This document shows, in pieces, positions 10,085-24,875 of a stretch of 32,000 nt of DNA (positions are counted from its first letter, which is position 1; each line of letters begins with the position of its first letter). A program made the position numbers and the translations under genes. The notes beneath the pieces are model-generated. The model searched no databases. It saw only the letters and a program-made list of their open reading frames with translations, and was not told the DNA's origin. Source of the DNA: Candidatus Nanogingivalaceae bacterium (GTDB lineage Bacteria; Patescibacteriota; Saccharimonadia; Saccharimonadales; Saccharimonadaceae); contig CP072208.2 of assembly GCA_015257795.3 (NCBI GenBank), positions 180,001-212,000 of the forward strand. The letters run 5' to 3'.

Positions 10085-10102
10085 ACACTTAAAACAGTTA
10101 TA

Positions 10103-10136
10103 AAAATAGCTTTCGAAAGAGGGCTATTTTTTGTGT
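10103..10136 (+). terminator. rho-independent terminator
   Basis: AAAATAGC-12 nt loop-GCTATTTT stem with a T-run. The loop contains CTTTCGAAAG. Confidence 0.65.
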
Positions 10137-10150
10137 TTTTAGGATTTTTT

Positions 10151-10159
10151 TGATATAAT
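10151..10159 (+). promoter_or_regulatory. extended -10 promoter (TGaTATAAT) for glyQS
   Basis: Followed by a leader with SD GGAGG (10177-10181) and ATG 10186. Confidence 0.5.
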
Positions 10160-10185
10160 ATTAGGTAGATTTTAATGGAGGAAAA

Positions 10186-11535
10186 ATGAAGAACGAAGAC
10201 TTAATGGACAGAATTGTTAGCCTCGCGAAACGGCGTGGTTTTATTTGGCAAGGTAGTGAAGTTTATGGCGGCATGCGTGGAACTTGGGATTACGGCCCAC
10301 TCGGCTTGGCGTTAAAGCGCAAAATAATGAACGAATGGTGGGAGTTTTTCGTTGAAAATCGCGAAGATATGTTTGGTGTTGATGCAGCGATTATTATGAA
10401 CCCAAAAGTTTGGAAAGCTAGTGGTCATGCTGCAACTTTTGCTGATCCTTTGGTTGAGGATTTAAAAACTGGTGAGCGCTATCGAGCGGATCACCTTTTG
10501 AAAGATGCTGGAATTGAAGCCGAGGGTCTTTCGAATGAAAAAATTACTGAAATTATTCGTGAAAAAGGTTTGAAATCGCCAAAAGGCAATGATTTGAGTG
10601 ACGTTCGTAGCTTTAACATGATGTTCCAGACTAATGTTGGCGCAGTTGTTAATGAAAACTCTGTAGCTTATCTTCGCCCAGAAACTGCTCAGGGAATTTT
10701 TACGAACTATAAAAATGTAGTAGATGCTTTTTATCCAAGCTTGCCGTTTGGGCTTGCGCAACAGGGAAAAGCTTTTCGAAACGAGATTAGTCCGCGTGAT
10801 TTTGTATTCCGTTCGCGAGAATTTGAACAAATGGAAATTGAGTATTTCGTAAAACCTGAAAACTGGGAATCTGAGTTCGAAAAACTTCTTCAACTAGTTC
10901 GAGAATTCTTAACTGAAAAAATGGGTCTTCCAAAAGAGTCTTTGTTTGAGCTTGAAGTTCCGGCCGAGGATCGAGCGCACTATTCAAAACGAACAGTAGA
11001 TTTCGAATTTAATTACCCAATCGGTAAAGAAGAATTGATGGGGATTGCTTATCGAACCGACTTCGACCTTGGAAATATTCAACGGGCAAGTGGTAAAAGT
11101 ATGGAATACACAGATAAACAAACTCGCGAAAAGTTTATTCCGCACGTGATTGAGCCAAGCTTTGGTGTTGAGCGATTATTGATGGCGGTTCTTTCAAATG
11201 CTTATACCGAGGTTGAGTCTGAAGGCAAAACTCGAACTTATCTAGCCTTACCAGAAAACCTTGCACCAACTAAAATCATCGTGGCTCCACTTTTGAAAAA
11301 TAAAGAAGCTTTAGTTGAAAAAGCTAAAGAAGTTTATTCTGAGCTTCGCAAAAAATACAAAAATGTAGAATTTGATTTGAGTGGAAAAGTTGGTAAAGTT
11401 TATGCTAAAGCAGATGAAATTGGTGTGCCAAAAGTTGTTGTGATCGATTTCGAAACAGTTGAAGGTGATGGCTTAGTTAGCGTCCGAAACCGTGATGACG
11501 CTTCACAGATTCGTGTAAAATCAAGCGAGATTTAA
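10186..11535 (+). CDS. glyQS: glycine--tRNA ligase (dimeric class II type)
   Basis: IVSLAKRRGFIWQGSEVYGGMRGTWDYGPLG, class II motifs (FRNEISPR, YRTDFDL) and a C-terminal anticodon-binding domain. 449 aa. Confidence 0.9.
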   Translation: MKNEDLMDRIVSLAKRRGFIWQGSEVYGGMRGTWDYGPLGLALKRKIMNEWWEFFVENREDMFGVDAAIIMNPKVWKASGHAATFADPLVEDLKTGERYRADHLLKDAGIEAEGLSNEKITEIIREKGLKSPKGNDLSDVRSFNMMFQTNVGAVVNENSVAYLRPETAQGIFTNYKNVVDAFYPSLPFGLAQQGKAFRNEISPRDFVFRSREFEQMEIEYFVKPENWESEFEKLLQLVREFLTEKMGLPKESLFELEVPAEDRAHYSKRTVDFEFNYPIGKEELMGIAYRTDFDLGNIQRASGKSMEYTDKQTREKFIPHVIEPSFGVERLLMAVLSNAYTEVESEGKTRTYLALPENLAPTKIIVAPLLKNKEALVEKAKEVYSELRKKYKNVEFDLSGKVGKVYAKADEIGVPKVVVIDFETVEGDGLVSVRNRDDASQIRVKSSEI

Positions 11536-12359: not shown

Positions 12360-12920
12360 ATGAAAAAAGTTATTGTAAAAGCAAAAATTAAAAATAAGGT
12401 TGATTTTATCAAGCGCTTAACAGATACGGGGCATGATTTTGGTCGTGTTATTTTTCAGAATGACCGCGTTTTTTTGCCGCGTGGTTACCAACCAAGTCGA
12501 AACTTGCCAAAATTGATGATTCGAACAGAGATTATTGATCCAAAGCGTAAGCCGTGGTATCAGCTAATCCAAAAACGACACATTCAAAGTGAAAATGTCG
12601 ACTTAATTCATGAAACACCTGTTTTGAACTATTCTGAAACTGCACACATTGTTCAACAACTAGGCTTTGAAATGAAAGTTGAAGTTCTCCGAAATCGTCA
12701 AAAGCTTCAAGTAGAAGATACAACTTTTTACTTAGATGATGTTGAAAAACTTGGAACATTCATTAAACTTGAAAGAGAAGTTAAAAAAGGTGATAATCCA
12801 GATGCGATTCGTCAAGAGTTGTGGGATGTTTTGGAAGTTCTCGGAATTGATAAAACCGCAAACTCTCCAGAAAACTATACTGCACAACTTCTTCGAAAGA
12901 AAGAAAAGTCTAAAAAATAA
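12360..12920 (+). CDS. CYTH-domain protein (class IV adenylyl cyclase / triphosphatase-like)
   Basis: Layout matches CyaB-like CYTH: N-terminal beta strand VIVKAKI, QNDRVF, LMIRTE, and FYLDDVEKLGTFIKLERE near the C-terminus. Confidence 0.6.
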   Translation: MKKVIVKAKIKNKVDFIKRLTDTGHDFGRVIFQNDRVFLPRGYQPSRNLPKLMIRTEIIDPKRKPWYQLIQKRHIQSENVDLIHETPVLNYSETAHIVQQLGFEMKVEVLRNRQKLQVEDTTFYLDDVEKLGTFIKLEREVKKGDNPDAIRQELWDVLEVLGIDKTANSPENYTAQLLRKKEKSKK

Positions 12921-12986
12921 AATAAAATAATGCGGTTAACTTTGACCGCTTATTTTTACATGTAAAAATAAAATATATAAATAAGC

Positions 12987-13015
12987 TTGAACGCTTTACG
13001 AAAAGCTGTTATAAT
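12987..13015 (+). promoter_or_regulatory. promoter (-35 TTGAAC, 17 nt, TGtTATAAT), leaderless-type
   Basis: The -10 ends 5 nt before GTG 13021 and 8 nt before ATG 13024. Confidence 0.55.
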
Positions 13016-13020
13016 AGAAA

Positions 13021-13707
13021 GTGATGATATTATTAGATCGTGTAACTAAAGTTTATGGGAATTCAAACACTCCTGCAATCAACAGGATCAGTCTTCATAT
13101 TAAACCAAAAGAGTTTGTGATTTTGGTAGGAACTAGTGGTGCTGGAAAATCATCACTGTTAAAGATGCTAACTCGCGAAGAGAAGCAAACTAGCGGTAAA
13201 ATTGTAGTTGGCGGAATTGACTACGATAAACTTCGAGATAAAGATATTCCACTTTTGCGTCGTCGAATTGGTGTGATTTTTCAGGATTTTAAACTTTTAC
13301 CAAATCGAACTGTTTTCGAAAATGTTGCTTTTGCGCTTGAAATTGCTGGAATGACAAATCATGAAATCAAAGCAACGGTTCCAAAAGTTATTAAGCTTGT
13401 TGGGCTTCAAGGTAAAGAGAATAATTTCCCGCATCAGTTAAGTGGTGGTGAACGTCAGCGTGTTGCGATTGCACGTGCACTCGCTCGTCAGCCGAAAATT
13501 CTAATCGCCGATGAGCCAACAGGAAATCTCGACCCAAAACACAGTTGGGATATTATTCGCTTGCTTGAAAAAATTAACGATTACGGAACAACAGTGGTGC
13601 TAACTACGCACAATGTTGAAATTGTTAACAGATTAAAGCGCCGTGTTATTACATTGAGTCACGGAAAAATTACTCACGATCAGTCACAGGGGGAATATAG
13701 ACAGTAA
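13021..13707 (+). CDS. ftsE: cell-division ABC ATPase FtsE
   Basis: Walker A GTSGAGKSS, signature LSGGERQR, Walker B ILIADEPTGNLD. Followed directly by ftsX. The start may be ATG 13024. Confidence 0.88.
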   Translation: MMILLDRVTKVYGNSNTPAINRISLHIKPKEFVILVGTSGAGKSSLLKMLTREEKQTSGKIVVGGIDYDKLRDKDIPLLRRRIGVIFQDFKLLPNRTVFENVAFALEIAGMTNHEIKATVPKVIKLVGLQGKENNFPHQLSGGERQRVAIARALARQPKILIADEPTGNLDPKHSWDIIRLLEKINDYGTTVVLTTHNVEIVNRLKRRVITLSHGKITHDQSQGEYRQ

Positions 13708-14804
13708 TGAAAGAAGATTTTTCAAACTCTCCAGCAGCAAAAGCACAAAATGACGATGAAAAACGTTTGCATGCTTCTTCAAAAGTTCAAAGCTTGAGAC
13801 ATCATCGAAAACCACAAACATCTCAAGGACGAAAGAAGCAAAATTCGAAAGTTATAATGCAACAAAAACAGCGTCGCCGCAAGGCTCTAACTTTTTGGAG
13901 AATTACAAAATATGGTGCAAATAGTTTTGTGCGAAACGCTTGGCTTTCGGTTGCCGCAACAGCAGTGATGACAGTTACTTTGGTTATTATCTTTGGTTCA
14001 TTATTAGCTCGCTCAATCTTGATGGATACAGTTGAAGATATCAAGAATAAGGTTGACATGTCGATTTACCTTAAAAAAGGTGTGTCCGATAAGGATATCG
14101 CCAAGATGAAAAAATCAATTCAAAATTTGAAATCAGTAACAAGCATTACATACACGTCACCGCAACAAGCACGTGAAAAATTCGCAAGCAAGAATTCTTC
14201 CGATGCAGATATTCGAAAAGCCTTGCTTGAGTCAAATAATGAATTTTTTGGAATTTTCAATATTAAACTGGTTAATATTTCGGATACAACAGAACTTAAG
14301 AGTCTCGTTGACAGTGATAAACTAATTAAATCGAGTCTTGACCCTGACCACCCACCAACATATGCGAGCGATCGCAACGAGATAATCAAGAATATTTCTA
14401 ATACGATTAATTTTGCCGAAAAAGTTGGACTTTTGGCTGGTTCGATCTTTGTTGTTATTGCAAGTTTGATTATCTTTAATACAATTCGAATGGCAATTTT
14501 TAACCGTCGAGAAGAGATTTATATGATGAAACTAATTGGTGCGAATAAGAGCTTTATTGCAGGACCTTTTCTGGTCGAAGCAATAATTTGTGGAACGATT
14601 GCAGCAGTTTTGGCGACAATCATTGGTTACACAATAGTTTTCTTGTCAAAATCAAAGCTTGAAGCATATGGAATTATCGTTTCTCCGATTATTTCATTCT
14701 TGCAAGTATACGGGGTTGTGGTTGTTCTTGGGCTAATTCTAATAGGTTCAACAATTGGTGTAATCTCTGCATTTACTGCAACAAGGAAATATTTAAAAAT
14801 ATAA
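13707..14804 (+). CDS. ftsX: cell-division permease-like FtsX with ~70-aa basic N-terminal extension
   Basis: TAATG coupling to ftsE. One TM, a large extracytoplasmic loop, then three C-terminal TMs (FtsX topology). Confidence 0.8.
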   Translation: MKEDFSNSPAAKAQNDDEKRLHASSKVQSLRHHRKPQTSQGRKKQNSKVIMQQKQRRRKALTFWRITKYGANSFVRNAWLSVAATAVMTVTLVIIFGSLLARSILMDTVEDIKNKVDMSIYLKKGVSDKDIAKMKKSIQNLKSVTSITYTSPQQAREKFASKNSSDADIRKALLESNNEFFGIFNIKLVNISDTTELKSLVDSDKLIKSSLDPDHPPTYASDRNEIIKNISNTINFAEKVGLLAGSIFVVIASLIIFNTIRMAIFNRREEIYMMKLIGANKSFIAGPFLVEAIICGTIAAVLATIIGYTIVFLSKSKLEAYGIIVSPIISFLQVYGVVVVLGLILIGSTIGVISAFTATRKYLKI

Positions 14805-14816
14805 TAGGAAAGGGGC

Positions 14817-14845
14817 TTGTCTTCACAAATAAAGTGTGGTATACT
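14817..14845 (+). promoter_or_regulatory. promoter (-35 TTGTCT, 17 nt, TGgTATACT)
   Basis: The track start GTG 14834 lies inside this promoter. The likely start is ATG 14885. Confidence 0.5.
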
Positions 14846-14884
14846 GTAAACAGTAATAAAATAAAAGCAAAAAGAAAAACAACT

Positions 14885-16075
14885 ATGAAGAAAATCAATA
14901 AGAAGAATTTACTTATCAATGGTGCGATATCTGTGGGTGTCGCGGCTGCTGGTGTTGTTGCAGTTTTGCCTAAAAACAACGCTCAAGCTGAAAAGAGTAT
15001 TGATCAGCTTGATAAAGAAATCAAAGCAATTCAGTCACAAATTAGTGATGCGGAATCTCAAGCGAGCCAATTACGAAACAAGGCTCAGACTCTTCAAAAC
15101 GAGTTGAATGGAATTGAAAACGAAAAGACTATGATTCAGTCTCAAATTTCAATCTATCAAAAGCAATTCGAAAAGCTTCAGATTGAGATTAAGAATAATG
15201 AAGATAGTATTCAGAGAAACCGGAATGCGCTTGGTTCTATTTTGGCAACAATGTCTCTTGATGACGATATAACACCTATTGAACGAATTGCCGGAAGTAG
15301 CAATCTTTCGAAAGCACTTGATAACTTCGAGTACCAGAGTGCGGTTAAGAATCAATTGGTTGAAAAAGTTGACAGCATTAAGCGGGCTAAAGCAGAACTT
15401 GAAAAACAACGCGATGAAACTAAGGTTGCGTTAACTAATCAAAAACAAGCGGAGTCTGCATTGCAAGAAAAGATTCGTCAGCAGAATGATTTGATTGCTA
15501 AAACTAAGAACGATGAAGCTGAATACACTAAATATGCTAGTGAACGTTCTTCACAAAAAGCAGAACTTCAAAAGCAGCAACAAGATATGATTCAGGCGCA
15601 AATTTTACGCGCTGCTCGTGCTGCCGGCGGTGGTACTATCCCACAAGCTATTGCTGGAACAAGTAGTTATCCTTGGAACGACGCAAACTGTTATGTTGAC
15701 GGTAACGCCGTAAGTCATGGTGGCGCAGATGGAAATGGCGGTGATGGTTATGGTTATGGTTGTCGTCAATGTGTGAGCTATGTCGCTTGGAAGTTGCGCG
15801 CAACAAAAGGTATTAACGCTGCGTATTGGGGGAATGCTAAGAATGTCCCAGCTAGTGCGCGTAATGCCGGATTCCGAACCGGAAGCACACCAAAAGCAGG
15901 ATCGTTCGGTGTTATGACCGGTGGTCAATACGGTCACATCGTTTGGGTTGAATCTGTTAACGGTAATATGGTTACAATTTCTCAATACAATTACCTCGTT
16001 AACGGACGCTGGGGGCAATTCTCTACAATGACTGTTCCTGCAAGCACTTACGATACTTACGTGTATTTTGATTAA
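14885..16075 (+). CDS. secreted coiled-coil + CHAP-domain peptidoglycan hydrolase (PcsB-like)
   Basis: Signal peptide MKKINKKNLLINGAISVGVAAAGVVAVLPKNNAQA. About 230 aa of heptad-rich coiled coil. C-terminal CHAP with catalytic Cys (CRQCVSYVAWKL) and His (GHIVWVESV). Confidence 0.8.
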   Translation: MKKINKKNLLINGAISVGVAAAGVVAVLPKNNAQAEKSIDQLDKEIKAIQSQISDAESQASQLRNKAQTLQNELNGIENEKTMIQSQISIYQKQFEKLQIEIKNNEDSIQRNRNALGSILATMSLDDDITPIERIAGSSNLSKALDNFEYQSAVKNQLVEKVDSIKRAKAELEKQRDETKVALTNQKQAESALQEKIRQQNDLIAKTKNDEAEYTKYASERSSQKAELQKQQQDMIQAQILRAARAAGGGTIPQAIAGTSSYPWNDANCYVDGNAVSHGGADGNGGDGYGYGCRQCVSYVAWKLRATKGINAAYWGNAKNVPASARNAGFRTGSTPKAGSFGVMTGGQYGHIVWVESVNGNMVTISQYNYLVNGRWGQFSTMTVPASTYDTYVYFD

Positions 16076-16078
16076 AAA

Positions 16079-16103
16079 ATAAGCTCCTAGGAGCTTATTT
16101 TTG
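16079..16103 (+). terminator. rho-independent terminator
   Basis: 20-nt perfect palindrome ATAAGCTCCTAGGAGCTTAT followed by a T-run. Confidence 0.75.
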
Positions 16104-16121
16104 TTGCGCTTATGTTTTTTG

Positions 16122-16130
16122 TGGTATAAT
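16122..16130 (+). promoter_or_regulatory. extended -10 promoter (TGgTATAAT), leaderless-type
   Basis: The -10 ends 6 nt before ATG 16137. The track start TTG 16101 lies upstream of the promoter. Confidence 0.5.
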
Positions 16131-16136
16131 AGTTTT

Positions 16137-17318
16137 ATGGATAGAGGTAAAAAAGTTGAACGCTCAACGCTTATCATTGTTTCGACGTTTATGTTGGTTT
16201 TGGGATTTGCTGGTGGTTCACGAATAGATGACATTAAAAATTTAATTGCACCGGTTTTCGGAATGAAGAGAGTTGAGAAACTTGATCTTTCGGCGGTTGA
16301 AAAAACATATAATCAATTAGCTTCAAACTTTGATGGTAAATTAGATCAACAAAAGTTGACAGAGGGTGCTTCAAAAGGTTTAGTTGAAGCCGCTGGAGAT
16401 AAATATACAGAATATATGACCGCAAAAGAAGCTGAAGAATTTAATAAAAGCTTAAGTGGTGATGTTGGCGCTGGGATTGGAGTTGAGCTCGCAAAGGATG
16501 GTCAGTCTGTTAAGGTAGTACGCGTTTTAGCAAAAAACTCCGCTCAAAGTGCTGGGATTTTACCAGGAGATATAATTTTAAAAGTTAATGATGAGGATGT
16601 GTCCAAAAAGAGTACGGCAGAAGTTAGCTCAAAAATTCGAGGCGATGCTGGTACCACTGTTAAAATTAGCTTACTAAGAGGTCAGGATATAAAAGAATTC
16701 TCGGTAACTCGAGCAAAAATCGAAAATCCAAGTGTAGAGCTTTCGAAAAATGGGGACGTTGCAATTCTTTCAATCTATCGCTTCGATAGTGAGACAGGTG
16801 CCTTAGCTAAAAAATACGCCGAAGAAATTAAGAATGAAGGATTTTCGAAGGTTATTCTAGACTTGCGTGGAAATGGTGGTGGCTACGTTCAAGCTGCAAA
16901 AACTGTTGCAAGTTTATGGCTTGAAAAAAATGCGTTAATTGTTAGCGAAAAAACAGGTTCAAAAACTATCGAAGAAATTCGAGCAACAGGCAATAATCCG
17001 TTAAAGGGTATGAAAACCGTTATTCTTCTTGATGGAACATCTGCAAGTGCTAGCGAAATTGTGGCAGGAGCGCTAAAAGAGAATAAAGCAGCAACGATTG
17101 TTGGCGAAAAATCTTACGGAAAGGGAAGCGTTCAGACTACGGTTGATATGCCCGGAGGAGCTTTACTGAAGGTTACTATTGCAAAATGGTACACACCAAA
17201 TGGAGAAAATATTTCAAATAATGGAATTTCACCAGATGTTGAGGTTAAGGCTCCAGAAAATCAAAGTTATTTGTTAAATGATATCCAGAAAAATAAAGCA
17301 CTAGATTTGTTAAAATAA
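16137..17318 (+). CDS. S41-family C-terminal processing peptidase (Ctp/Prc-like) with PDZ domain
   Basis: N-terminal TM anchor, PDZ (GIGVEL...GDIILKVND), and S41 core LDLRGNGGGYV...SASASEIVAGAL...GKGSVQ. Confidence 0.85.
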   Translation: MDRGKKVERSTLIIVSTFMLVLGFAGGSRIDDIKNLIAPVFGMKRVEKLDLSAVEKTYNQLASNFDGKLDQQKLTEGASKGLVEAAGDKYTEYMTAKEAEEFNKSLSGDVGAGIGVELAKDGQSVKVVRVLAKNSAQSAGILPGDIILKVNDEDVSKKSTAEVSSKIRGDAGTTVKISLLRGQDIKEFSVTRAKIENPSVELSKNGDVAILSIYRFDSETGALAKKYAEEIKNEGFSKVILDLRGNGGGYVQAAKTVASLWLEKNALIVSEKTGSKTIEEIRATGNNPLKGMKTVILLDGTSASASEIVAGALKENKAATIVGEKSYGKGSVQTTVDMPGGALLKVTIAKWYTPNGENISNNGISPDVEVKAPENQSYLLNDIQKNKALDLLK

Positions 17319-17327
17319 GGAGTTAGT

Positions 17328-17717
17328 ATGCAAATTAAGAAGAAAATTTTACTAGTTGAAGATGATGAAGTGTTGGCAAGTATTTATCGTGCTCGACTTG
17401 AGATGGAAGATTTTGAAGTCATTGAGGTTCATGATGGCGAGCAGGCTCTAACGGCTGCCCTTAAATATCGTCCAGATTTAATTTTGCTCGATGCGATGAT
17501 GCCAAAAATATCTGGTTTTGATGTTTTGGATATTTTACGAAATACGCCAGAAACAATGAATCTTCAAATTATTATGCTTACAGCCCTAAGTCAAGAGAGT
17601 GACAGAAAACGTGCTGAAGAGCTGGGTGTTGATGATTATCTTGTGAAATCTCAAGTTGTTATTTCTGATGTAATCGAAAAAATTCGTGAGCATCTAGGTC
17701 TTGATGAAAGCTATTAG
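17328..17717 (+). CDS. single-domain response regulator (CheY/DivK-like)
   Basis: KKILLVEDDE...PDLILLDAMMPKISGFDVL...IIMLTA...YLVK receiver motifs. SD AAGGAG upstream. Confidence 0.85.
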   Translation: MQIKKKILLVEDDEVLASIYRARLEMEDFEVIEVHDGEQALTAALKYRPDLILLDAMMPKISGFDVLDILRNTPETMNLQIIMLTALSQESDRKRAEELGVDDYLVKSQVVISDVIEKIREHLGLDESY

Positions 17718-17726
17718 AGAATAAAT

Positions 17727-17762
17727 AAAAATGAGTCGATCGATACGAAAGACTCATTTTTT
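17727..17762. terminator. bidirectional rho-independent terminator
   Basis: AAAATGAGTC-13 nt-GACTCATTTT (10 bp), with an A-run on one side and a T-run on the other, between convergent genes. Confidence 0.75.
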
Positions 17763-17770
17763 ATTGCAAA

Positions 17771-18049
17771 TTACGCAGCTACAACTTCTACAACTGTACG
17801 TCGTTCAGTCTTGCCAGTAAATTTGCGTTTTTGGATTTGTTTAAATTTCACAACACCGTCTTGTTTGGCATGAATCGTGAAATTTCGGCTCATGTAAGTT
17901 CCTTCACCAGCCAATTTAGTTGCACCAGTTTGTCGAACGAGAACTTCACCCTCGTTAACTTTTTGGCCACCAAATCGTTTAACACCAAGGCGTTGACCGG
18001 CGTTATTGTGGATGTTCTTACTTGAACCACCCGATTTAACGTGTGACAT
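17771..18049 (-). CDS. rpmA: 50S ribosomal protein L27
   Basis: MSHVKSGGSSKNIHNNAGQRLGVKRFGGQ...G..LVRQ.G matches the L27 signature. 92 aa. Confidence 0.9.
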   Translation of the reverse strand: MSHVKSGGSSKNIHNNAGQRLGVKRFGGQKVNEGEVLVRQTGATKLAGEGTYMSRNFTIHAKQDGVVKFKQIQKRKFTGKTERRTVVEVVAA

Positions 18050-19262
18050 TTTTACTCCTTATTAGTACTAATAATTCACGCGCCACAACTTGATTTTCGC
18101 GATAATATATTAAATCTTGTGGTTTAACGCGCATAAATTCTTTTCTATTATACCCCAGCTCATTTAAAAAGTCAACAAGTGGAAGGTGTGAAAAATGGCC
18201 ATTTTGTGTTCTCCAAGCGGGGACGGCAATGCAAATCTGGGTTCCGGCTGGAATTTGTGAGGCAAGGTTTTTCAAAAAATTTGAAATTATACGATTACAA
18301 TTTTCACGAACTTCTGTTAATTTTTTTGGTGAAGGCGGAGCGGAGAACGGTTGTCCTAGATAAGTTTCGCAAACAACAGTTGAAAGTGTATCAGCAAAAG
18401 TCCATTTTTCATCTGTTGCGTCAGCTTGATAAATTTCGCCAAGTTTGCCGTGCGGTTTAAATTCTTGCAAAAACCACTCGCTGTTTTCTTTCGAAAATTC
18501 TATCATTTTTTCACTTAAATCTGTTCCGTTAACTTCAAAACCTTTTAAGAGTGCTTCTTGAAGAACTGTGCCTGTTCCACAAAACGGATCAAGGATTTTA
18601 GGGTCTTCGAAAGTTTTTTCACCCAAAAAAGCTTTAATTTGTGGCTGATTTTTACCAGCGCCAAAATTAATCATTGTTTGTGCAAGTTTTGGTGGTAGCA
18701 TTCCTACAAAAGCATCGCGCTTTGGTCTATTTTGGTCACGTCTAGCGTAGCTTGTGATATTTTGCGCACCTTCGCTTAAGGCAATAATTGTTTTTTTGCC
18801 GCCACGAACTGCTAAAATTTCAATCTTTTTTTCACTTAAGCCAAGTTTGTTGTTGTGTGAAATTGCGGTTGAAAGCGCTAGTTGCTTTGAAGGAATAATC
18901 CGCACAGAAACATCACGATTTTTAAGTTTTTGTTTAATAACCGAGCTTGTTTTTGAAAGTTCATTTGGTCGAAGTTTTAGTCCGTAAGTGGAGATTCCCA
19001 AGGTGATTTTTCCTTTAAAGTTTGAAAAATCTTGTTCAAAAATTTTAGTCATCTTTTTTGAAACTTCTCGCCAATCTGTTGAGTTAATTTCGAAAGCTAC
19101 TTGACCAGTTTTTAGGATTGAACCAAAATGTGAAACATTAAGTTTTTCAGTTTCGATAAGACAGGCATAATCACCAAGCACGCGAATTTTTTCTCCGCCA
19201 AAAACACTTTCGAGTTCGGCAATTCCTATGCTCGGCTGTCGCCCTAAAATTGCAATTTTCAT
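18036..19262 (-). CDS. SAM-dependent methyltransferase (Trm11/UPF0020-like, probably RNA)
   Basis: Motif I LDPFCGTGTVLQEAL followed by GTDLSEKMI. The N-terminal ~180 aa are unrecognised. Overlaps rpmA by 14 nt in the same operon. Confidence 0.55.
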   Translation of the reverse strand: MKIAILGRQPSIGIAELESVFGGEKIRVLGDYACLIETEKLNVSHFGSILKTGQVAFEINSTDWREVSKKMTKIFEQDFSNFKGKITLGISTYGLKLRPNELSKTSSVIKQKLKNRDVSVRIIPSKQLALSTAISHNNKLGLSEKKIEILAVRGGKKTIIALSEGAQNITSYARRDQNRPKRDAFVGMLPPKLAQTMINFGAGKNQPQIKAFLGEKTFEDPKILDPFCGTGTVLQEALLKGFEVNGTDLSEKMIEFSKENSEWFLQEFKPHGKLGEIYQADATDEKWTFADTLSTVVCETYLGQPFSAPPSPKKLTEVRENCNRIISNFLKNLASQIPAGTQICIAVPAWRTQNGHFSHLPLVDFLNELGYNRKEFMRVKPQDLIYYRENQVVARELLVLIRSKNVTR

Positions 19263-19268
19263 TTTAAA

Positions 19269-19297
19269 ATTATAACATAAAATAAGCTTAATATCAA
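19269..19297 (-). promoter_or_regulatory. promoter (-35 TTGATA, 17 nt, TGtTATAAT), leaderless-type, for the methyltransferase-rpmA operon
   Basis: Read on the complement strand. The -10 ends 6 nt before ATG (19262). Confidence 0.55.
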
Positions 19298-19309
19298 AGC
19301 AAAAACATG

Positions 19310-19338
19310 TTGATATTTTTTTCGATTAATGATAAAAT
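19310..19338 (+). promoter_or_regulatory. promoter (-35 TTGATA, 17 nt, TGaTAAAAT) for paralog A
   Basis: The -10 lies inside the direct repeat and the -35 lies outside it. SD AGGTGG at 19370-19375. Confidence 0.55.
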
Positions 19339-19774
19339 CAAATAGACATAAGAGTAATGGAAAAAAGTAAGGTGGAATAAACAAATGCAAGATTTAAAAC
19401 TCAAAAAGCTTATCTGTCTAGATAAGCCTGCAGAAAACAATTTGGTTTCTGCAGCTCCATCCCCAACAACAGATGGAAAAACAGAAACTGTAGCTGTTCA
19501 ACCAGCTCCAAAAAACATCCAAGCTCCAAACACTGGAGTGCAAAACACAACGGGAATTATTACAACAATCCTTGTTCTAGCTCTAATCCTTGGACTAACA
19601 ACTCTCATTGTTTCAAAGCTAAGCAAGAAATCTAAAAAGATTGTTCTTTCAATCTTCATGCTAGCTACAGCTACATTCGGTGGAATTAACGCTTTCTCAA
19701 AACTATCTTACGCCGAAACCCTAGTTGACGGCAAACCCTGCCAAACTACTGGCTACACTGACTATGAGGTTGGG
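19328..19774 (+). repeat. direct repeat copy 1 (promoter -10, SD and codons 1-130 of paralog gene)
   Basis: Aligned by eye to 22860-23305. In the 57-nt leader there is 1 indel (A6 vs A5) and 1 SNP. Codons 1-104 have 0 differences. Codons 105-131 have 6 differences, all synonymous. Confidence 0.95.
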
Positions 19775-20134
19775 GCGGATGTTTCAGTAGGAATTGATGT
19801 TACAGGCGCATCTTACAATAAATCGCAAATCTTCATCAAAGTCAAAGGTACTGGTGATCCAGAAAAAGACAAAGCAGCCCTAGCTGCAGAAATCGACAAG
19901 CTAAAGGATGACAAAGATTTGTTGAAGAGTGCTGTAAGAAATTTTAATGACAGCAATCCTACGCTTAAACACCCTAATGGTACGGATATTGTTGCTGAAG
20001 ACTTTAACAACGGAGGAATCAAACAAAATATCTCTAAATCTCCAAAACAAGATGATGAAAAGCAGGTATATCAGGTTTATGCTGATTTTACAACTTCGAC
20101 CGGTATTCCAGTTTCGCCGGTAGATTATCTATAG
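19385..20134 (+). CDS. 2-TM membrane protein, paralog A (N-terminal APNTG sorting-signal-like segment, internal signal-peptide-like TM, variable C-terminal ectodomain)
   Basis: Residues 1-131 are identical to the product of 22916..23695. IQAPNTG + TM + KKSKK lies at residues 45-85, then IVLSIFMLATATFGGINAFSKLSYA|ET. The C-terminal ~120 aa diverge apart from a conserved DPEKDKAALAAEIDKLKDDKDLLK helix. Confidence 0.75.
   Translation: MQDLKLKKLICLDKPAENNLVSAAPSPTTDGKTETVAVQPAPKNIQAPNTGVQNTTGIITTILVLALILGLTTLIVSKLSKKSKKIVLSIFMLATATFGGINAFSKLSYAETLVDGKPCQTTGYTDYEVGADVSVGIDVTGASYNKSQIFIKVKGTGDPEKDKAALAAEIDKLKDDKDLLKSAVRNFNDSNPTLKHPNGTDIVAEDFNNGGIKQNISKSPKQDDEKQVYQVYADFTTSTGIPVSPVDYL
19832..19927 (+). 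repeat. second conserved block shared by the paralogs (copy 1)
   Basis: About 96 nt nearly identical to 23387-23482. Differences are mostly synonymous. Embedded in otherwise unalignable sequence. Confidence 0.85.
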
Positions 20135-20149
20135 TATCAACTACTAAAA

Positions 20150-20177
20150 ATAGCACCAAAAGGTGTTATTTTTATTT
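20150..20177 (+). terminator. rho-independent terminator
   Basis: ATAGCACC-aaaa-GGTGTTAT (8 bp, one G-U) followed by a T-run. Confidence 0.65.
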
Positions 20178-20185
20178 TGCGTTTA

Positions 20186-20194
20186 TGCTATAAT
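20186..20194 (+). promoter_or_regulatory. extended -10 promoter (TGcTATAAT), leaderless-type, for the KwaB-like/helicase operon
   Basis: The -10 ends 7 nt before ATG 20202. Confidence 0.5.
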
Positions 20195-20201
20195 ATAATA
20201 C

Positions 20202-21278
20202 ATGGAAGATGAAATTAGAACTGAATATTCAGAAAATACCGAAAACAAACAATACGAAACAGAAGAAAAAAACCACAAGGTTGAATCTTCTTCAGAAAAA
20301 GATGAATCAACTGATATTTTTCAATGGGCGAATTTAACAGATGGTATTAAAGGCGAGCTTGATGTCGAGTTTTTCCTTTTCAATAAAAATTTCGCTCCTT
20401 TCACTACAAGCTTTGCGGGTGAATTAAACTCACAAATTAAGCCACTATTTTTGTATGACATGATTAATTTCGTAAATATGGGGGCGGGCACTGGCTTGAG
20501 TGTGCGTAATTACGAAACTGATGGTGGTGCAAGTAAAGATGTGCTTTTAAAAACTGAGTTGAAAAAAGTTCAACATGCGGATGCGCTTTTGAATGTGATT
20601 GAAACGCAATATTCTGACATTCCTGAATTTAATGAAAACGAGCACGACTTTAAACGGATTAAAGGAATTTTGGCGCGCTTCACAAATTCAAAAGGTGAAA
20701 AGTTCTATGTTGCCAAACAAATTATGCAAGGGCAAGTTTTGCGCGGTGCAACAGCTTGGGAATTTCGAAACGGTAAATTTGGCGCTTTCGAACCTGAATT
20801 TGGTTTAAAAATCCAGCCAGATAACCAAGTTTTAATTGTGAATAACGACATCTTTATTTTTAACCAAAGTAAATTCGAAAAACTCTTCAATTATGATTAT
20901 AAGAAACAAGTTTTGGCTGATCAAAAAGTGCTTGAAATCGAACGAAAATATAAACTGAGTTTTCCAGACGGTTTAGATTTGCAAACCTTAGTTCGTGATC
21001 ATAAAAAAGCCGCAACAAAACTACAAAAAATGGATGAAATTGGTGAAATTTCACAAGAAAAAGTGGTTGAATATGCTGATGAAATGCAGCTTGAACTTAT
21101 GACAGATGACAATGGCGCGATTATTATTATGGACGGCAATGATTTGGATATGTTCGTAAATCTGATTAACGAAGATTATATCATGAGTGAAATTACTGGT
21201 CGTCGATACGAAATTAAAAGCAAAAAATTACTTGATGAACCAGAGGGTGAACCACCACGAATGATTGGGAGCGAATAG
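20202..21278 (+). CDS. soluble hypothetical protein, tentatively DUF4868/KwaB-like, with acidic N-terminal tail
   Basis: No TM. A 45-aa Glu/Ser-rich N-terminus, then a ~310-aa body. Its segment pattern (FFLFNKN..., IKGILARF...FYVAKQI, LIVNNDIFIFNQSKFEKLFNYDY, C-terminal DMFVNLINEDYIMSEITGRRYEIKSKK) resembles DUF4868 proteins as I remember them. Not verified by any search. Confidence 0.4.
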   Translation: MEDEIRTEYSENTENKQYETEEKNHKVESSSEKDESTDIFQWANLTDGIKGELDVEFFLFNKNFAPFTTSFAGELNSQIKPLFLYDMINFVNMGAGTGLSVRNYETDGGASKDVLLKTELKKVQHADALLNVIETQYSDIPEFNENEHDFKRIKGILARFTNSKGEKFYVAKQIMQGQVLRGATAWEFRNGKFGAFEPEFGLKIQPDNQVLIVNNDIFIFNQSKFEKLFNYDYKKQVLADQKVLEIERKYKLSFPDGLDLQTLVRDHKKAATKLQKMDEIGEISQEKVVEYADEMQLELMTDDNGAIIIMDGNDLDMFVNLINEDYIMSEITGRRYEIKSKKLLDEPEGEPPRMIGSE

Positions 21279-21287
21279 TCTTCGAAA

Positions 21288-22838
21288 ATGAAACAAGCGC
21301 TAGCTTTAGAAATTATGCTTTCGGGCGAGAACGTCTTTTTAACTGGGGCGGCGGGAAGTGGAAAAACCTTCACGCTTAACCAGTTTATTAAGCTTGCAAA
21401 AAATTCTGGAAAAAAAGTTAGTGTCACAGCCACCACTGGTTTGGCGGCAAGTCATCTTGGTGGAAACACAATTCACGCTTGGAGCGGAATTGGAATTTAT
21501 GATTATCTTTCTAAGAAGTTTTTCGAAAAAATTCCTAAAAATCGTGCGGAAATTATTAAAAATACTGATATTCTAGTGATTGATGAAATTTCAATGTTGC
21601 ATGATTTTCGGCTTGATATGGTTGAAGAAATTTGTCGCACAATTCGCCAAAATGACAAACCTTTTGGTGGAATTCAAGTAATTTTGTGTGGCGATTTTTT
21701 TCAGCTACCGCCAATTAATCGAAGTGGTAGCCGAACTGGTGGTTTTGCGATTCATTCTGAAGCTTGGCGTCTAGCGGATTTTACGGTTTGTTATCTTGAG
21801 GAGAATTATCGCCAGAAAGATAGCGAGTTGACTGAAATTTTAAACGCACTTCGGGCGGATGATTTGCGCCGAAAGCACGCTGAAAGCTTGCTTAATCGTG
21901 TTGATGCTGAGCCAGAATTCGAAAATGAAGATTTTTCGAAAAACCTAACCGAACTTCACACTACGAATATTGATGTCGATAAAATCAACGAGCAAAAACT
22001 TGCCGAACTTGAGGGCAAAGAGTTTCATTTTGCTCAAACCACAACGGGCGCAAAAAATTATGTTGAAACTTTGCAAAAATCAGTTCTTGCGCCAGAGCTT
22101 TTGCGGCTTAAAAAGGGTGCTTTAGTTATGGCCGTAAAAAATGCACAAAATCGTCAATATGTAAATGGCTCAATTGGCGAGGTGATTGATTTCGAAACTT
22201 TAACAGATTATCCGATTGTGCAATTTCAAAATGGAAAAGTCGTTACAATGGTTCCAGATACCTGGGAGATGCGCGATGGTGAAAGAAAACGAGCAAGTAT
22301 TATGCAAATTCCACTACGGCTGGCATATGCAATTACCGTTCATAAAAGTCAAGGAATGACCCTTGATGCTGCACGAATTGATCTTCGAAAAGCTTTTGCT
22401 GAAGGAATGGGCTATGTGGCTCTTTCACGAGTTCGATCGTTAGATAGGTTGTATTTAATTGGGATAAATCGAATGGCATTAGTTGTTAGTGAAGAAGCGC
22501 AAAGAATTGATACGCGACTAAAAAATGAAAGTCAAAGGGCGGAGAAACGTTTTGCCCATCTGTTAGAAACTGCCAAAAAGCGCGAGGCGGGTGAGATTAT
22601 TGAAAAGGCTCCAGCAAAAACAACCTGGGCGCAAAAACTAGAAAAAATGCGAGAAGAATTTCCAAATGCGTATCGACCATGGAAGCTTTCCGATGATGCA
22701 CGTCTTCAAGAAGCGATTTTCAAAAACGGCAAAATAGATGAAGCGTTAATATTAAAATTAAGCAAAGAACTTGGCCGACATAAAGGCTCGATTGAGGCGC
22801 GTATTAAAAAGCTTTTTGGCGAAGATTCTTTGCAGTAA
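21288..22838 (+). CDS. Pif1-family SF1B DNA helicase with C-terminal HTH-like extension
   Basis: Walker A GAAGSGKT, Walker B ILVIDEISML, Pif1 signature GGIQVILCGDFFQLPPI, ENYRQ, LKKGALVMAVKN, AYAITVHKSQGMTLD, YVALSRVRS. An extra ~110-aa helical tail (WAQKLEKMREEFPNAYRPWKLSDD...). Starts 9 nt after the upstream gene. Confidence 0.85.
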   Translation: MKQALALEIMLSGENVFLTGAAGSGKTFTLNQFIKLAKNSGKKVSVTATTGLAASHLGGNTIHAWSGIGIYDYLSKKFFEKIPKNRAEIIKNTDILVIDEISMLHDFRLDMVEEICRTIRQNDKPFGGIQVILCGDFFQLPPINRSGSRTGGFAIHSEAWRLADFTVCYLEENYRQKDSELTEILNALRADDLRRKHAESLLNRVDAEPEFENEDFSKNLTELHTTNIDVDKINEQKLAELEGKEFHFAQTTTGAKNYVETLQKSVLAPELLRLKKGALVMAVKNAQNRQYVNGSIGEVIDFETLTDYPIVQFQNGKVVTMVPDTWEMRDGERKRASIMQIPLRLAYAITVHKSQGMTLDAARIDLRKAFAEGMGYVALSRVRSLDRLYLIGINRMALVVSEEAQRIDTRLKNESQRAEKRFAHLLETAKKREAGEIIEKAPAKTTWAQKLEKMREEFPNAYRPWKLSDDARLQEAIFKNGKIDEALILKLSKELGRHKGSIEARIKKLFGEDSLQ

Positions 22839-22841
22839 TTA

Positions 22842-22870
22842 TTGACCTTTCCTCCAAACAATGATAAAAT
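22842..22870 (+). promoter_or_regulatory. promoter (-35 TTGACC, 17 nt, TGaTAAAAT) for paralog B
   Basis: An independent -35 outside the repeat, at the same 17-nt spacing as in copy 1. Confidence 0.55.
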
Positions 22871-23305
22871 CAAATAGACATAAGAGTAATGGAAAAAGTA
22901 AGGTGGAATAAATAAATGCAAGATTTAAAACTCAAAAAGCTTATCTGTCTAGATAAGCCTGCAGAAAACAATTTGGTTTCTGCAGCTCCATCCCCAACAA
23001 CAGATGGAAAAACAGAAACTGTAGCTGTTCAACCAGCTCCAAAAAACATCCAAGCTCCAAACACTGGAGTGCAAAACACAACGGGAATTATTACAACAAT
23101 CCTTGTTCTAGCTCTAATCCTTGGACTAACAACTCTCATTGTTTCAAAGCTAAGCAAGAAATCTAAAAAGATTGTTCTTTCAATCTTCATGCTAGCTACA
23201 GCTACATTCGGTGGAATTAACGCTTTCTCGAAACTATCTTATGCCGAAACCCTAGTTGATGGCAAACCTTGCCAAACTACTGGCTACACTGATTATGAGG
23301 TTGGG
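22860..23305 (+). repeat. direct repeat copy 2
   Basis: See 19328-19774. Confidence 0.95.
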
Positions 23306-23695
23306 GCAAACATTTCGCTAGGTCTTAAGGTTAATGAAGATAGAGAGATACAAGGTGCTAGCGTAGCTGCTGGTGTAGAAAAGTTTTTCATCAAAGTCAA
23401 AGGCGCTGGTGATCCAGAAAAAGACAAAGCAGCTCTAGCCGCAGAAATCGACAAGCTAAAGGATGACAAAGATTTGCTTAAAAAATTCAAAGATAACTAT
23501 AATGCGGTAAAATGTACTGGACATGCTGGAAATGATGAATATTGTATAGAAACTGATATAGATATTTTTCCTCTAGAGGTAGGTAAAAATATTACTACAG
23601 AGCCTAAAGTGAGTGACGAAAAACAACTTTATGAAATTAGTGCATTAATCCAGCAAGAAGGTGGTTTTGGGATTATTGCAACTCCACACATCTAG
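22916..23695 (+). CDS. 2-TM membrane protein, paralog B (same N-terminal module, different Cys-containing C-terminal ectodomain)
   Basis: 259 aa. Residues 1-131 are identical to paralog A. The C-terminal region is unalignable except for the conserved helix and a DEKQ[VL]Y motif. Confidence 0.75.
   Translation: MQDLKLKKLICLDKPAENNLVSAAPSPTTDGKTETVAVQPAPKNIQAPNTGVQNTTGIITTILVLALILGLTTLIVSKLSKKSKKIVLSIFMLATATFGGINAFSKLSYAETLVDGKPCQTTGYTDYEVGANISLGLKVNEDREIQGASVAAGVEKFFIKVKGAGDPEKDKAALAAEIDKLKDDKDLLKKFKDNYNAVKCTGHAGNDEYCIETDIDIFPLEVGKNITTEPKVSDEKQLYEISALIQQEGGFGIIATPHI
23387..23482 (+). repeat. second conserved block shared by the paralogs (copy 2)
   Basis: See 19832-19927. Confidence 0.85.
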
Positions 23696-23706
23696 AAATA
23701 AATTAA

Positions 23707-23737
23707 AAGACGACCAAGTGAGGTTGTCTTTTTTTAT
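23707..23737 (+). terminator. rho-independent terminator
   Basis: AAGACGACC-aagtga-GGTTGTCTT (9 bp, one G-U) followed by T7. Confidence 0.75.
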
Positions 23738-24021
23738 TTTGCTTGTAAGAAATAAAGGAGAAAGGTCTGATTGAAGGGGCGGATTTCAAACAGGGATTAT
23801 TTAATATTGTGCCCAAGTTTATTTTAGTTTTATCTTTTTACGCAAGGCGGTTAATTCTATGGCATTAGCTACTACAAAAGAGGCGTAAAGCAGGTTTATT
23901 ATAAACACAATAAAAACAGATAATGTCAAAAAAATAAATAAAATAAAACAATAGAAAGTCAAGCGAACAAAGTTTTGGCAAGGAAAAACGAAATGTTTTA
24001 GAATATTGTAAAACAAAACTA

Positions 24022-24050
24022 TTGACTTTTTAAAAAACTTATGCTATTAT
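24022..24050 (+). promoter_or_regulatory. promoter (-35 TTGACT, 17 nt, -10 TATTAT)
   Basis: Canonical spacing. It places the track start ATG 24041 upstream of the transcription start site. Confidence 0.5.
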
Positions 24051-24106
24051 ATAAACATACAAAACAATTAAGATTAAATAAGTCAAATAAAATAAAAAGG
24101 AATAAA

Positions 24107-24391
24107 ATGACAAAAAAACAAACAGAAACTAAAATTATTAAAGAGACTTCAACTAAAAAAGTTTCAAAAAAAGATAATGAAATTAAAAAAGCTAAAACTT
24201 TATTAACAAATAATGGAATTATGATTGCTGAAGATGGAACAGTAGTTGTAGATCAGGTCACTCAAGACTTTCGAAGTGCCGTTTTGGTTCTTTCACTCGC
24301 AATTAATCTCGTTATTTTTGTAACTTACTTGATTCTTATGTCTACAAGTAAGTATGACGCAGCATTAATTAGCGCTTTGTTGCCACGATAG
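24107..24391 (+). CDS. hypothetical small Lys-rich protein with C-terminal TM (94 aa)
   Basis: ATG after AAAGGA. Lys/Thr-rich N-terminus and one hydrophobic helix (AVLVLSLAINLVIFVTYLILM). AT-rich context makes this uncertain. Confidence 0.4.
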   Translation: MTKKQTETKIIKETSTKKVSKKDNEIKKAKTLLTNNGIMIAEDGTVVVDQVTQDFRSAVLVLSLAINLVIFVTYLILMSTSKYDAALISALLPR

Positions 24392-24417
24392 TCTGGTTTT
24401 CAACAACTAAACGTAAG

Positions 24418-24479
24418 CTTTGTGGAAAAACAGGGAATATCTGTTATTAGCCTTGCTTTTCCACAAAGTTGTGGAAAAA
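24418..24479. promoter_or_regulatory. three DnaA-box-like 9-mers (TTTTCCACA) arranged as nested palindromes
   Basis: TGTGGAAAA at 24421-24429, TTTTCCACA at 24457-24465, TGTGGAAAA at 24470-24478. All fit TTWTNCACA. 24418-24429 pairs perfectly (12 bp) with 24457-24468. 24457-24478 is itself a 10+2+10 palindrome. Confidence 0.45.
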
Positions 24480-24875
24480 TATATAAAAAATTATTTCTAT
24501 ATTTGCGTGTTTGTCAAAAATAGGTCTTGCGAAAAAAATAAATTCGCGGTAAACTTGAATCAGTGGAAACGACAGAAACCAACAGAAAAACCCACTAAAC
24601 AAAAACAAAAGCACGTTAAAAATAGATGTAATTTTTTAGTTTAAGGTCAACTACCTGGTGATTAAACAACTGGACAAATACCAGTAACCAGGTTAAAATA
24701 ATAGCTGGAGCACATTCTAAAACCTCCCAAAATAAAACTCCACCTCATATATAAGTCTCTCAAACAGCAATATGGTTGGCTATACGCCAAGCAAAAGGCT
24801 AAACTTATAATGAATCTTAAAACAAAAAATAAACAAAAACAAAAAGTTTAATCATCAGATAGGTGGCTTTAAATT

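Follow-up and report, generated by a model that had tools for sequence, protein, structure and literature searches.

Organization of the KwaB-like–PIF1 locus

Two adjacent genes in a 32,000-nucleotide stretch of DNA from a Candidatus Nanogingivalaceae bacterium (GenBank assembly GCA_015257795.3, contig CP072208.2, positions 180,001 to 212,000 of the forward strand; hereafter the window) are the subject of this analysis. The window belongs to a low-GC (~37%) Saccharibacteria (TM7, Patescibacteria) chromosome, and its closest public match is a metagenome-assembled genome (MAG) of the oral Nanogingivalaceae group (L005, L011; the prefix L denotes related loci). The first open reading frame (ORF1) encodes a predicted KwaB-like protein and the second (ORF2) a predicted PIF1-family helicase, a partnership that appears to be undescribed and that is found at a fixed chromosomal position across Saccharibacteria. 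The features of the pair are listed below, with positions counted from the start of the window.

20145..20174, + strand: terminator-like hairpin closing the upstream flanking gene (13-bp stem, T-run)
20186..20194, + strand: extended −10 element, TGcTATAAT, 7 nt from the ATG of ORF1
20202..21278, + strand: ORF1, KwaB-like (DUF4868) protein of 358 aa (translation, profile searches, AlphaFold2 (AF2) model)
ORF1 residues 1-35: acidic, disordered N-terminal leader whose length varies among homologues (alignment, AF2 model)
ORF1 residues ~36-347: predicted two-domain KwaB fold (Rossmann-like N-terminal domain and DUF4868)
ORF1 residues 344-353 (window 21230-21260): C-terminal peptide L..EPEGEPPR, predicted to be disordered
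21288..22838, + strand: ORF2, PIF1-family superfamily 1B (SF1B) helicase of 516 aa (PF05970, motifs, 2B/SH3 domain)
22575..22835, + strand: C-terminal tail of ORF2, aa 430-516, with a Myb/SANT-like tri-helical motif (103 distant orthologues)

ORF1 ends with a TAG codon at 21276-21278 and ORF2 begins with the ATG at 21288, leaving a gap of 9 nt. The pattern TGnTAnnnT is found 6-8 nt ahead of the ATG in two clades of relatives (L005-L035 and L100-L167), while a third clade has a leadered TACAAT...GAAAG arrangement instead. The recurrence of this −10 placement in two clades with diverged surroundings supports a predicted leaderless transcript for the pair, and the upstream hairpin is predicted to isolate the pair's own promoter. 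The preliminary description of this locus had proposed a unit of this kind, with two ORFs 9 nt apart, a leaderless promoter and terminators on both sides, and the gap, the −10 element and the two hairpins (the second at 23705-23732, listed below) were all verified.

ORF1: a distant KwaB homologue

The identity of ORF1 has been probed using sequence profiles and structure prediction. The protein matches Pfam family PF16162 (KwaB/DUF4868) with an E-value of 7e-11 and 42.9 bits (gathering score 26.3) over profile positions 3-186 of 186, and it also matches nine PADLOC KwaB models, the best with an E-value of 2e-14. A profile of the ORF1 family recovers the E. coli KwaB chains in PDB entries 9o0i and 9mrx (E 1e-15, residues 43-316). 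The family profile was required for this result, as phmmer with ORF1 as the single query gave no meaningful match among PDB sequences. When the AF2 model of ORF1 (predicted local distance difference test, pLDDT, 86.8; predicted template-modelling score, pTM, 0.78) was compared with the PDB using Foldseek, KwaB structures alone were matched (E 5e-14, probability 1.0), the next entry having an E-value of 0.17. The global TM-score to KwaB is just 0.4-0.5, suggesting that the relative orientation of the two domains in the model differs from that in KwaB. ORF1 is ~15% identical to E. coli KwaB and scores 56.3 bits against the NCBIfam KwaB equivalog model NF041623, below the cut-off of 200, and a Pfam search with the N-terminal half of ORF1 alone returned no family. 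Taken together, these comparisons identify ORF1 as a full-length KwaB/DUF4868 homologue in which both KwaB domains are covered, yet a distant member of the family. The DUF4868/KwaB resemblance, which the preliminary description had suggested, was thus borne out by Pfam, PADLOC, the PDB profile search and Foldseek, while the 45-aa acidic tail that it had placed on ORF1 was not; the acidic part is instead the N-terminal disordered leader of ~35 aa.

The subfamily to which ORF1 belongs carries an N-terminal DIFxWAN helix as its hallmark. The C-terminal peptide L..EPEGEPPR is invariant in the 23 aligned homologues of the close clade (≥70% identity) and is lost in deeper relatives; it is a candidate docking motif. 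The residues K172, K203, D207, K224 and K273 are invariant in the clade and fall 1-2 residues from the mapped DNA-contact positions of E. coli KwaB (N134, R142, R167, D169, K187 and R233), in a mapping that is approximate and an alignment that is uncertain at ~15% identity. Similarly, and with the same approximation, the E. coli KwaB loop that touches KwaA (P100/N101/Q103) aligns to a different, clade-conserved sequence in ORF1. No firm evidence is drawn from either mapping.

ORF2: a PIF1-family helicase

ORF2 matches Pfam families PF05970 (PIF1; E 1e-39, 136.9 bits, gathering score 25.9) and PF21530 (Pif1_2B; 25.2 against a gathering score of 23.9), and its best similarity in NCBIfam is to RecD2 and RecD. 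The catalytic motifs GAAGSGKT (Walker A), DEISML (Walker B), PFGGIQVILCGDFFQLPP and VHKSQGMTLD are all intact in the translation. ORF2 is therefore classed, from its domains and motifs, as an intact PIF1-family helicase with predicted 5'-3' ATP-dependent unwinding activity, in agreement with its earlier assignment as an SF1B Pif1-type helicase. The C-terminal tail of the protein contains the motif W..K..KMR..P.AY.PW...D..L...S..LGRH.GS...R..K.FGED, which is kept in 103 distant orthologues. This tail, previously described as helix-turn-helix (HTH)-like, matches no Pfam family, HTH families included; its conserved motif is nevertheless Myb/SANT-like, and in a published annotation residues 436-505 of the Southlakia orthologue are given as an ECOD tri-helical domain.

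Similar to other bacterial PIF1/RecD2-type SF1B helicases, ORF2 possesses the PF05970 and Pif1 2B domains, the Walker A and B motifs and the Pif1 signature. In contrast to these enzymes, it carries the extra Myb/SANT-like tri-helical domain and is linked class-wide to a KwaB-like gene.

Linkage, position and distribution of the pair

More than 2,500 relatives of ORF1 are present in a protein collection clustered at 90%; the best 120 of these belong to Saccharibacteria assemblies without exception, with identities of 71-89%. When one genome was scanned for each GTDB species, the KwaB-like gene was present in at least 199 species; this value is a lower bound obtained with two strict peptide patterns from a collection that includes MAGs, and is a count rather than a share of Saccharimonadia species. 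In 71 of 80 species-representative loci the KwaB-like gene is followed on its own strand by a PIF1 orthologue (62-99% identity), and seven of the remaining nine end less than 1.4 kb past the KwaB-like gene, leaving 73 informative loci of which 71 contain PIF1. When metagenome loci are included (found in a scan with alignment A4 that recovered mostly the main clade), PIF1 is present in 146 of 166; 17 loci end too soon and three are true exceptions, giving linkage in 146 of 149 informative loci. The gap between the two genes has a median of 13 nt and a maximum of 2.6 kb.

The genes RsmH, FtsL, PBP (penicillin-binding protein), MraY and FtsW of the division and cell wall (dcw) cluster are found downstream of the pair in every case. 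The wider frame shared by these loci is ExoVII, a histidine kinase (HK) and response regulator (RR), RecO, glycyl-tRNA synthetase (GlyRS) and RNase H or CYTH, and the remainder of the window consists of core housekeeping genes, with no defence-island or mobile-element neighbours. These comparisons indicate that the pair is a syntenic, vertically inherited, fixed-position chromosomal feature across Saccharibacteria (class Saccharimonadia), as judged from the sequenced loci. The locus had initially been put forward as a candidate defence module, for which lineage-wide conserved synteny would suggest a housekeeping role instead; such synteny is essentially what was found, as a count of at least 199 species rather than a share of all species. 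The position is fixed, vertical, strongly constrained and beside dcw, and the proposal of a defence island is not upheld. The accompanying view that both genes are native rather than recently inserted is supported.

The possibility that the two genes are functionally unrelated neighbours, held together merely by regional synteny, deserves consideration here. The region from RecO/GlyRS through dcw is syntenic throughout, so adjacency could be partly historical. In environmental clades, one to three unrelated genes (pilin-like, HD-domain, DUF5663 and others) stand between the KwaB-like gene and PIF1, and because such intervening genes are found in many genomes, strict co-transcription is not universal. 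Furthermore, L048 and L050 (KwaB-like gene at 10001-10969, 70% identical) keep the KwaB-like gene with no PIF1 within 10 kb on either side, and are the sole clear exceptions to linkage in the main clade. Adjacent PIF1 is likewise missing from L089 and L174, which are deeper relatives. Against these observations, the gap is only 7-15 nt in large clades with a single promoter, and the KwaB-like gene and PIF1 remain linked even though the upstream neighbours vary by lineage: a methyltransferase and L27 plus a flanking paralogue in the window, CYTH in L004 and RNase H in L002. Adjacency is also found in both gene orders. A reversed arrangement, with PIF1 ahead of the KwaB-like gene on the same strand, is present in ten loci and in Southlakia (SEML1_0264/0265), with a gap of 25-637 nt and still upstream of dcw. 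The reversed-order loci include L128, L130, L131, L147, L149, L150, L156, L159 and L168. In these loci the KwaB-like protein is 47-49% identical to that of the window and the PIF1 protein is orthologous (59-63% identity). The changing upstream neighbours, the occurrence of both gene orders and the apparent involvement of two KwaB-like lineages argue for a linkage beyond inherited synteny, and functionally unrelated neighbours are considered very unlikely.

Two further observations concern the surroundings of the pair in individual loci. In comparison with L004 (SpoU-CYTH-KwaB-like), the window contains an extra block after CYTH at 12920-19262, consisting of FtsE, FtsX, CHAP, an S41 protease, a response regulator, L27 (− strand) and a methyltransferase (− strand); from the gene order this is a local rearrangement that leaves the KwaB-like–PIF1–dcw order untouched. 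In L002, a 340-aa gene after PIF1 was considered as a second DUF4868 paralogue, an idea prompted by the order of the genes in Southlakia, and rejected, as it has neither a Pfam KwaB match nor BLASTP similarity.

Selection and published genetics

The mean identity to the window across loci is 70% for the KwaB-like protein, 67% for PIF1, 65% for RsmH and 56% for PBP, and the KwaB-like and PIF1 identities co-vary (Spearman 0.78 across loci). The dN/dS values are 0.016-0.068 for the KwaB-like gene and 0.03-0.10 for PIF1, as compared to 0.027-0.115 for PBP and RsmH. Both genes are under strong purifying selection, on par with or stricter than that on their housekeeping neighbours.

Genetic data are available for the orthologues in Southlakia epibionticum, which has been studied by transposon insertion sequencing (Tn-seq; Wang et al., Cell 2023, PMC10633639). 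Here SEML1_0264 (K15255, PIF1-type, 1530 nt) and the adjoining SEML1_0265 (DUF4868, 1014 nt) were both scored non-essential (NE/NE/NE), and the nearby RsmH was scored essential (ES; PMC10633639). The pair is thus dispensable in phage-free Southlakia co-culture. RecA, RecJ, RecF, RecG and ComEC received the same NE score, at least at early time points (PMC10633639), and for this reason the score cannot separate a role in repair from one in defence. The annotation table of the same study lists RecFOR, RecA, RecJ, RecG, RuvB, PriA and two UvrD-type helicases, and no RecQ, RecB, AddA or RecD by name (PMC10633639); PIF1 is the only SF1B helicase annotated in it.

Comparison with Kiwa and the wider KwaB subfamily

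Kiwa consists of KwaA and KwaB (E. coli O55:H7; PDB 9mrx, 9mtn, 9nyu and 9o0i). Dimeric E. coli KwaB uses DUF4868 to bind both ssDNA and dsDNA without sequence specificity and stalls the replication of incoming DNA, while KwaA provides localisation and triggering. ORF1 is predicted to have the same two-domain fold as KwaB, and the differences between the two systems are otherwise considerable. The window pair is without KwaA (four transmembrane (TM) segments, PF28043), as Pfam, PADLOC and BLASTP searches of the flanking genes were all negative, in line with what had been noted at the outset. KwaA was also not called in the related loci L001-L004, and it was detected in the positive controls L087 and L174. 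ORF1 lies below the equivalog cut-off for KwaB, has the subfamily-specific DIFxWAN helix, differs in sequence at the loop that in KwaB touches KwaA, and is partnered with a PIF1 helicase. Finally, the pair is a vertical, fixed core locus under purifying selection, whereas the phylogeny of canonical Kiwa is reported to be dominated by horizontal gene transfer (HGT) and >53% of its loci are in prophages, plasmids or islands. Because KwaA, equivalog-level similarity and mobility are all missing, the pair should not be filed as Kiwa. It may still share the core biochemistry of Kiwa, namely DNA binding by a KwaB dimer.

No model that combines a KwaB-like protein with PIF1 is present in PADLOC-DB v2, where the ORF2 matches are generic and partial, to the much longer PDC-S68, RecD-like and PDC-M16A profiles. 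The literature searched contains no link of KwaB, Kiwa or DUF4868 with Pif1 and no KwaB homologues outside Kiwa, and the supplement of the Cell 2023 study labels the Southlakia gene merely DUF4868 (PMC10633639). The suggestion that no such system had been described therefore holds for the PADLOC models and the literature searched, and the pairing appears to be undescribed: a fold already known, here with a new partner and a new mode of evolution.

The ORF1 subfamily is compact. A search of 1.84 billion cluster representatives yielded only 206 relatives at E ≤ 1e-3, and classical KwaB proteins are 23-27% identical to ORF1. One such classical relative, P0186 (24% identity), stands behind KwaA (PF28043) and beside a resolvase. 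A member of the DIFxWAN subfamily, P0145 (31% identity), is found directly behind a genuine KwaA in a Saccharibacteria-type locus with the order ExoVII-HK-RR-RecO-GlyRS-KwaA-KwaB. This arrangement, with KwaA (PF28043) and KwaB straight after GlyRS, is found in L174 (7466-8945; also in L171 and L172). Kiwa proper thus exists in the Saccharibacteria lineage, in the same chromosomal neighbourhood. In L174 a second KwaB-like gene (14202-15281, 43% identity) lies beyond the Kiwa genes, across 5 kb of variable DNA that encodes an S51 peptidase and a Zeta toxin, with no PIF1 in the 3.6 kb past it.

Other members of the subfamily are found in phage-like surroundings. P0140, P0135 and L176 adjoin RecT-like annealing proteins in what is, by its composition, a phage-like recombination module; the other genes there encode a PD-(D/E)XK-FtsK fusion, a RusA resolvase, a DNA methyltransferase and a LysM-CHAP lysin. 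Approximately 16 IMG/VR contigs carry a KwaB-like copy beside small and large terminase subunits and an HNH endonuclease. Phage and IMG/VR loci of these kinds include L169 (4761-9516), L173 (886-2832), L176 (4401-8930), L185 (2453-6173) and L177-L193. A search of GenBank phage records with ORF1 gave no match, the distant relatives being found in IMG/VR instead. The phage proteins compared (L169, L173, L176 and L185) are 30-43% identical to ORF1, belong to the same DIFxWAN subfamily and lack KwaA, with recombination or DNA-end neighbours. They differ from the window pair in that they are located on phage or mobile contigs and are partnered with RecT, with the PD-(D/E)XK-FtsK fusion and RusA, or with terminase and HNH, rather than with PIF1. 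Phages thus encode KwaA-less KwaB-like proteins in DNA-end and recombination contexts, an apparently undescribed use of the KwaB fold.

In a rough neighbour-joining tree based on Poisson distances, the main PIF1-linked clade is monophyletic (100% bootstrap), and the KwaB-like proteins of most reversed-order loci group with the phage-type relatives (100% bootstrap). This grouping suggests a second, independent recruitment of a KwaB-like gene beside the orthologous PIF1, or may reflect xenologous replacement of the KwaB-like gene. The subfamily splits from classical KwaB with 79-93% support, and its KwaA-linked member is basal.

These relationships bear on whether the pair is a lineage-fixed, KwaA-independent immune system, in which the KwaB-like protein would bind phage or plasmid DNA and PIF1 would take the place of the membrane sensor logic, either by conferring access or specificity or by clearing KwaB from self DNA. 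The sole homologue to have been characterised acts against phages, as an effector that keeps ejected DNA from being replicated, and the basal KwaA-KwaB pair of the same subfamily in a Saccharibacteria-type locus makes a defence ancestry plausible. Dispensability in phage-free co-culture is also what an immune function would predict, several PADLOC candidate systems contain SF1B helicases, and RecBCD offers a precedent for repair and immunity by one machine. In contrast, the position of the pair is fixed, its presence near-universal and its divergence vertical and in step with that of its neighbours; dN/dS is as low as in ribosome- and division-associated genes; and neither defence islands nor mobile elements adjoin it. 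Canonical Kiwa shows the reverse, moving by HGT and on mobile elements, ORF1 lies below the KwaB equivalog cut-off, and phages themselves carry members of the subfamily. Consequently, a dedicated immune role is regarded as unlikely, if the best placed of the competing explanations.

Flanking paralogues

The pair is flanked by two paralogous genes, as had been described, which lie outside the conserved module.

19310..20134, + strand: upstream flanking paralogue, promoter and 249-aa 2-TM/secreted protein (gene 19385-20134)
22842..23695, + strand: downstream flanking paralogue, promoter and 259-aa protein (gene 22916-23695)
23705..23732, + strand: terminator-like hairpin after the downstream paralogue

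The promoters and first ~130 codons of the two genes share 99-100% nucleotide identity (19329-19776 and 22861-23307), while the rest has diverged. The paralogues thus form a near-identical direct repeat of ~450 nt around the pair. The repeat is suggestive of gene conversion or of a recent duplication, and through it the 3.5-kb pair could be looped out. Their shared N-terminus consists of APNTG, a hydrophobic stretch, KLSKKSKK and a second hydrophobic stretch ending in SYA|E, an arrangement that resembles a sorting signal followed by a signal peptide. No family was found for either protein in Pfam, NCBIfam, PADLOC or PHROG.

The preliminary description considered that these 2-TM proteins could substitute for a membrane sensor, and they were examined as replacements for KwaA. 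This candidate role was rejected: there is no BLASTP similarity to genuine KwaA and no KwaA match in Pfam or PADLOC, the genes are confined to the window's own genus-level clade, their presence varies and they evolve rapidly. Both copies are present in L007 and L008, while L005 and L006 contain the downstream copy alone and a 32-aa remnant of the upstream one. Strains that share 98-100% identity in the KwaB-like protein have paralogues with 62-91% identity. The flanking paralogues are lineage-specific, fast-evolving accessory surface or secreted proteins and no conserved partner of the pair.

An AT-rich spacer (23700-24870, 29-31% GC) separates the downstream paralogue from RsmH and contains only a 116-aa ORF with a C-terminal hydrophobic segment. 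The spacer is without MraZ, which is found directly ahead of RsmH in environmental relatives.

Palindrome signals in the window

The palindrome TTCGAA is present 71 times in the window, as compared to 21.1 ± 4.6 times in dinucleotide-preserving shuffles (none of 100 reached 71) and ~10 times expected from base composition. The sites are spread evenly over the three reading frames and intergenic DNA, indicating a signal at the DNA level. In the vicinity of the pair, TTCGAA is found at 20764, 20787, 20874, 21281, 21522, 21918, 21935, 22191 and 22384; the density initially reported for both genes is thus reflected in enrichment across the window and in sites within ORF1 and ORF2. There are none in 19095-20763 or 22390-24269, and the palindrome is missing from both flanking paralogues. 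Enrichment is 7-13-fold in the near relatives L005, L009, L023 and L030 and ~3-fold in L026, and is not seen in L035 or in more distant Saccharibacteria. For a naturally competent lineage, TTCGAA could represent a signal akin to an uptake sequence, or one connected with methylation. Separately, ATGCAT and TGTACA are each found 0 times in the window, as compared to ~10.5 expected for each, and AGTACT twice as compared to 10.5, a depletion consistent with restriction-site avoidance.

An uptake-type signal would be of interest if the pair were a dedicated processor of transforming DNA, with the KwaB-like protein capturing incoming linear DNA at the membrane and PIF1 helping to unwind or integrate it. 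Natural competence and ComEC have been reported for the lineage, KwaB of Kiwa acts on DNA entering the cell, and type IV pilin-like (N_methyl) genes are found beside or between the two genes in some loci. The case is wholly circumstantial, however: the pilin-like neighbours are not conserved, TTCGAA enrichment is confined to few genera whereas the pair is class-wide, and the KwaB-like protein is without a membrane anchor or partner. A dedicated role in transformation is therefore considered very unlikely.

Proposed role of the pair

The explanation that best accommodates these observations, with a probability of roughly one half, is that the pair is a vertically inherited, non-essential DNA-transaction module functioning in repair, recombination or the processing of incoming DNA, and no mobile defence island. 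First, the KwaB-like protein, which by homology would be a dimeric, sequence-nonspecific binder of ssDNA and dsDNA, would bind a DNA end, a stalled fork or incoming linear DNA. Next, the co-expressed PIF1 helicase would unwind or strip the bound DNA, moving 5'-3'. Finally, the unwound DNA would feed RecFOR/RecA-type recombination or repair in a lineage without annotated RecBCD/AddAB or RecQ. The established components of this proposal are homology and fold, linkage and position, purifying selection, the non-essentiality of the orthologues and the phage recombination and packaging contexts of the subfamily; from these we infer that ORF1 binds DNA, that it is coupled physically or functionally to PIF1, and what the substrate would be.

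RecBCD and AddAB offer an analogy, with homology only in RecD as an SF1B helicase: the pair would similarly combine an end-binding activity with an SF1B 5'-3' motor. RecBCD serves repair and immunity alike, RecBCD and KwaB are both targets of the lambda Gam DNA mimic, and Southlakia is without annotated RecBCD or AddAB. In contrast to RecBCD/AddAB, no nuclease domain was detected in ORF1 or ORF2, and neither has RecB or RecC homology.

Several points weigh against a DNA-transaction module. The proposal draws on comparative data and published Tn-seq, and KwaB, the one family member that has been characterised by experiment, is an immune effector. The approximate residue mapping adds no firm evidence at ~15% identity, and the figure of at least 199 species is a count rather than a share. 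The linkage is also imperfect, as illustrated by the intervening genes in many genomes, by L048 and L050 in the main clade and by the deeper relatives L089 and L174, and the broad synteny of the region could account for part of it.

A broader hypothesis, offered tentatively, is that the KwaB fold, instead of being first and foremost an immune effector, may be a general accessory factor for binding DNA or DNA ends whose partner differs by context: PIF1 in the Saccharibacteria core chromosome, RecT or terminase in their phages and KwaA in Kiwa. The pair would then be a two-protein end- or fork-processing machine, not recognised before, replacing the missing RecBCD/AddAB/RecQ functions, and could double as immunity against incoming linear DNA.

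KwaB has so far been known solely as the effector of an anti-phage system that is mobile and triggered at the membrane. The subfamily described here is KwaA-free, vertical, better conserved than cell-division genes and locked to PIF1 class-wide in ultra-small, genome-reduced epibionts. Saccharibacteria are genetically tractable and transposon insertions in both orthologues are viable, so the pair is open to direct test. The pair bears on what defence effectors were, or become, away from defence islands, and on how DNA breaks and incoming DNA are dealt with in Patescibacteria, which are without the usual machinery for processing ends.

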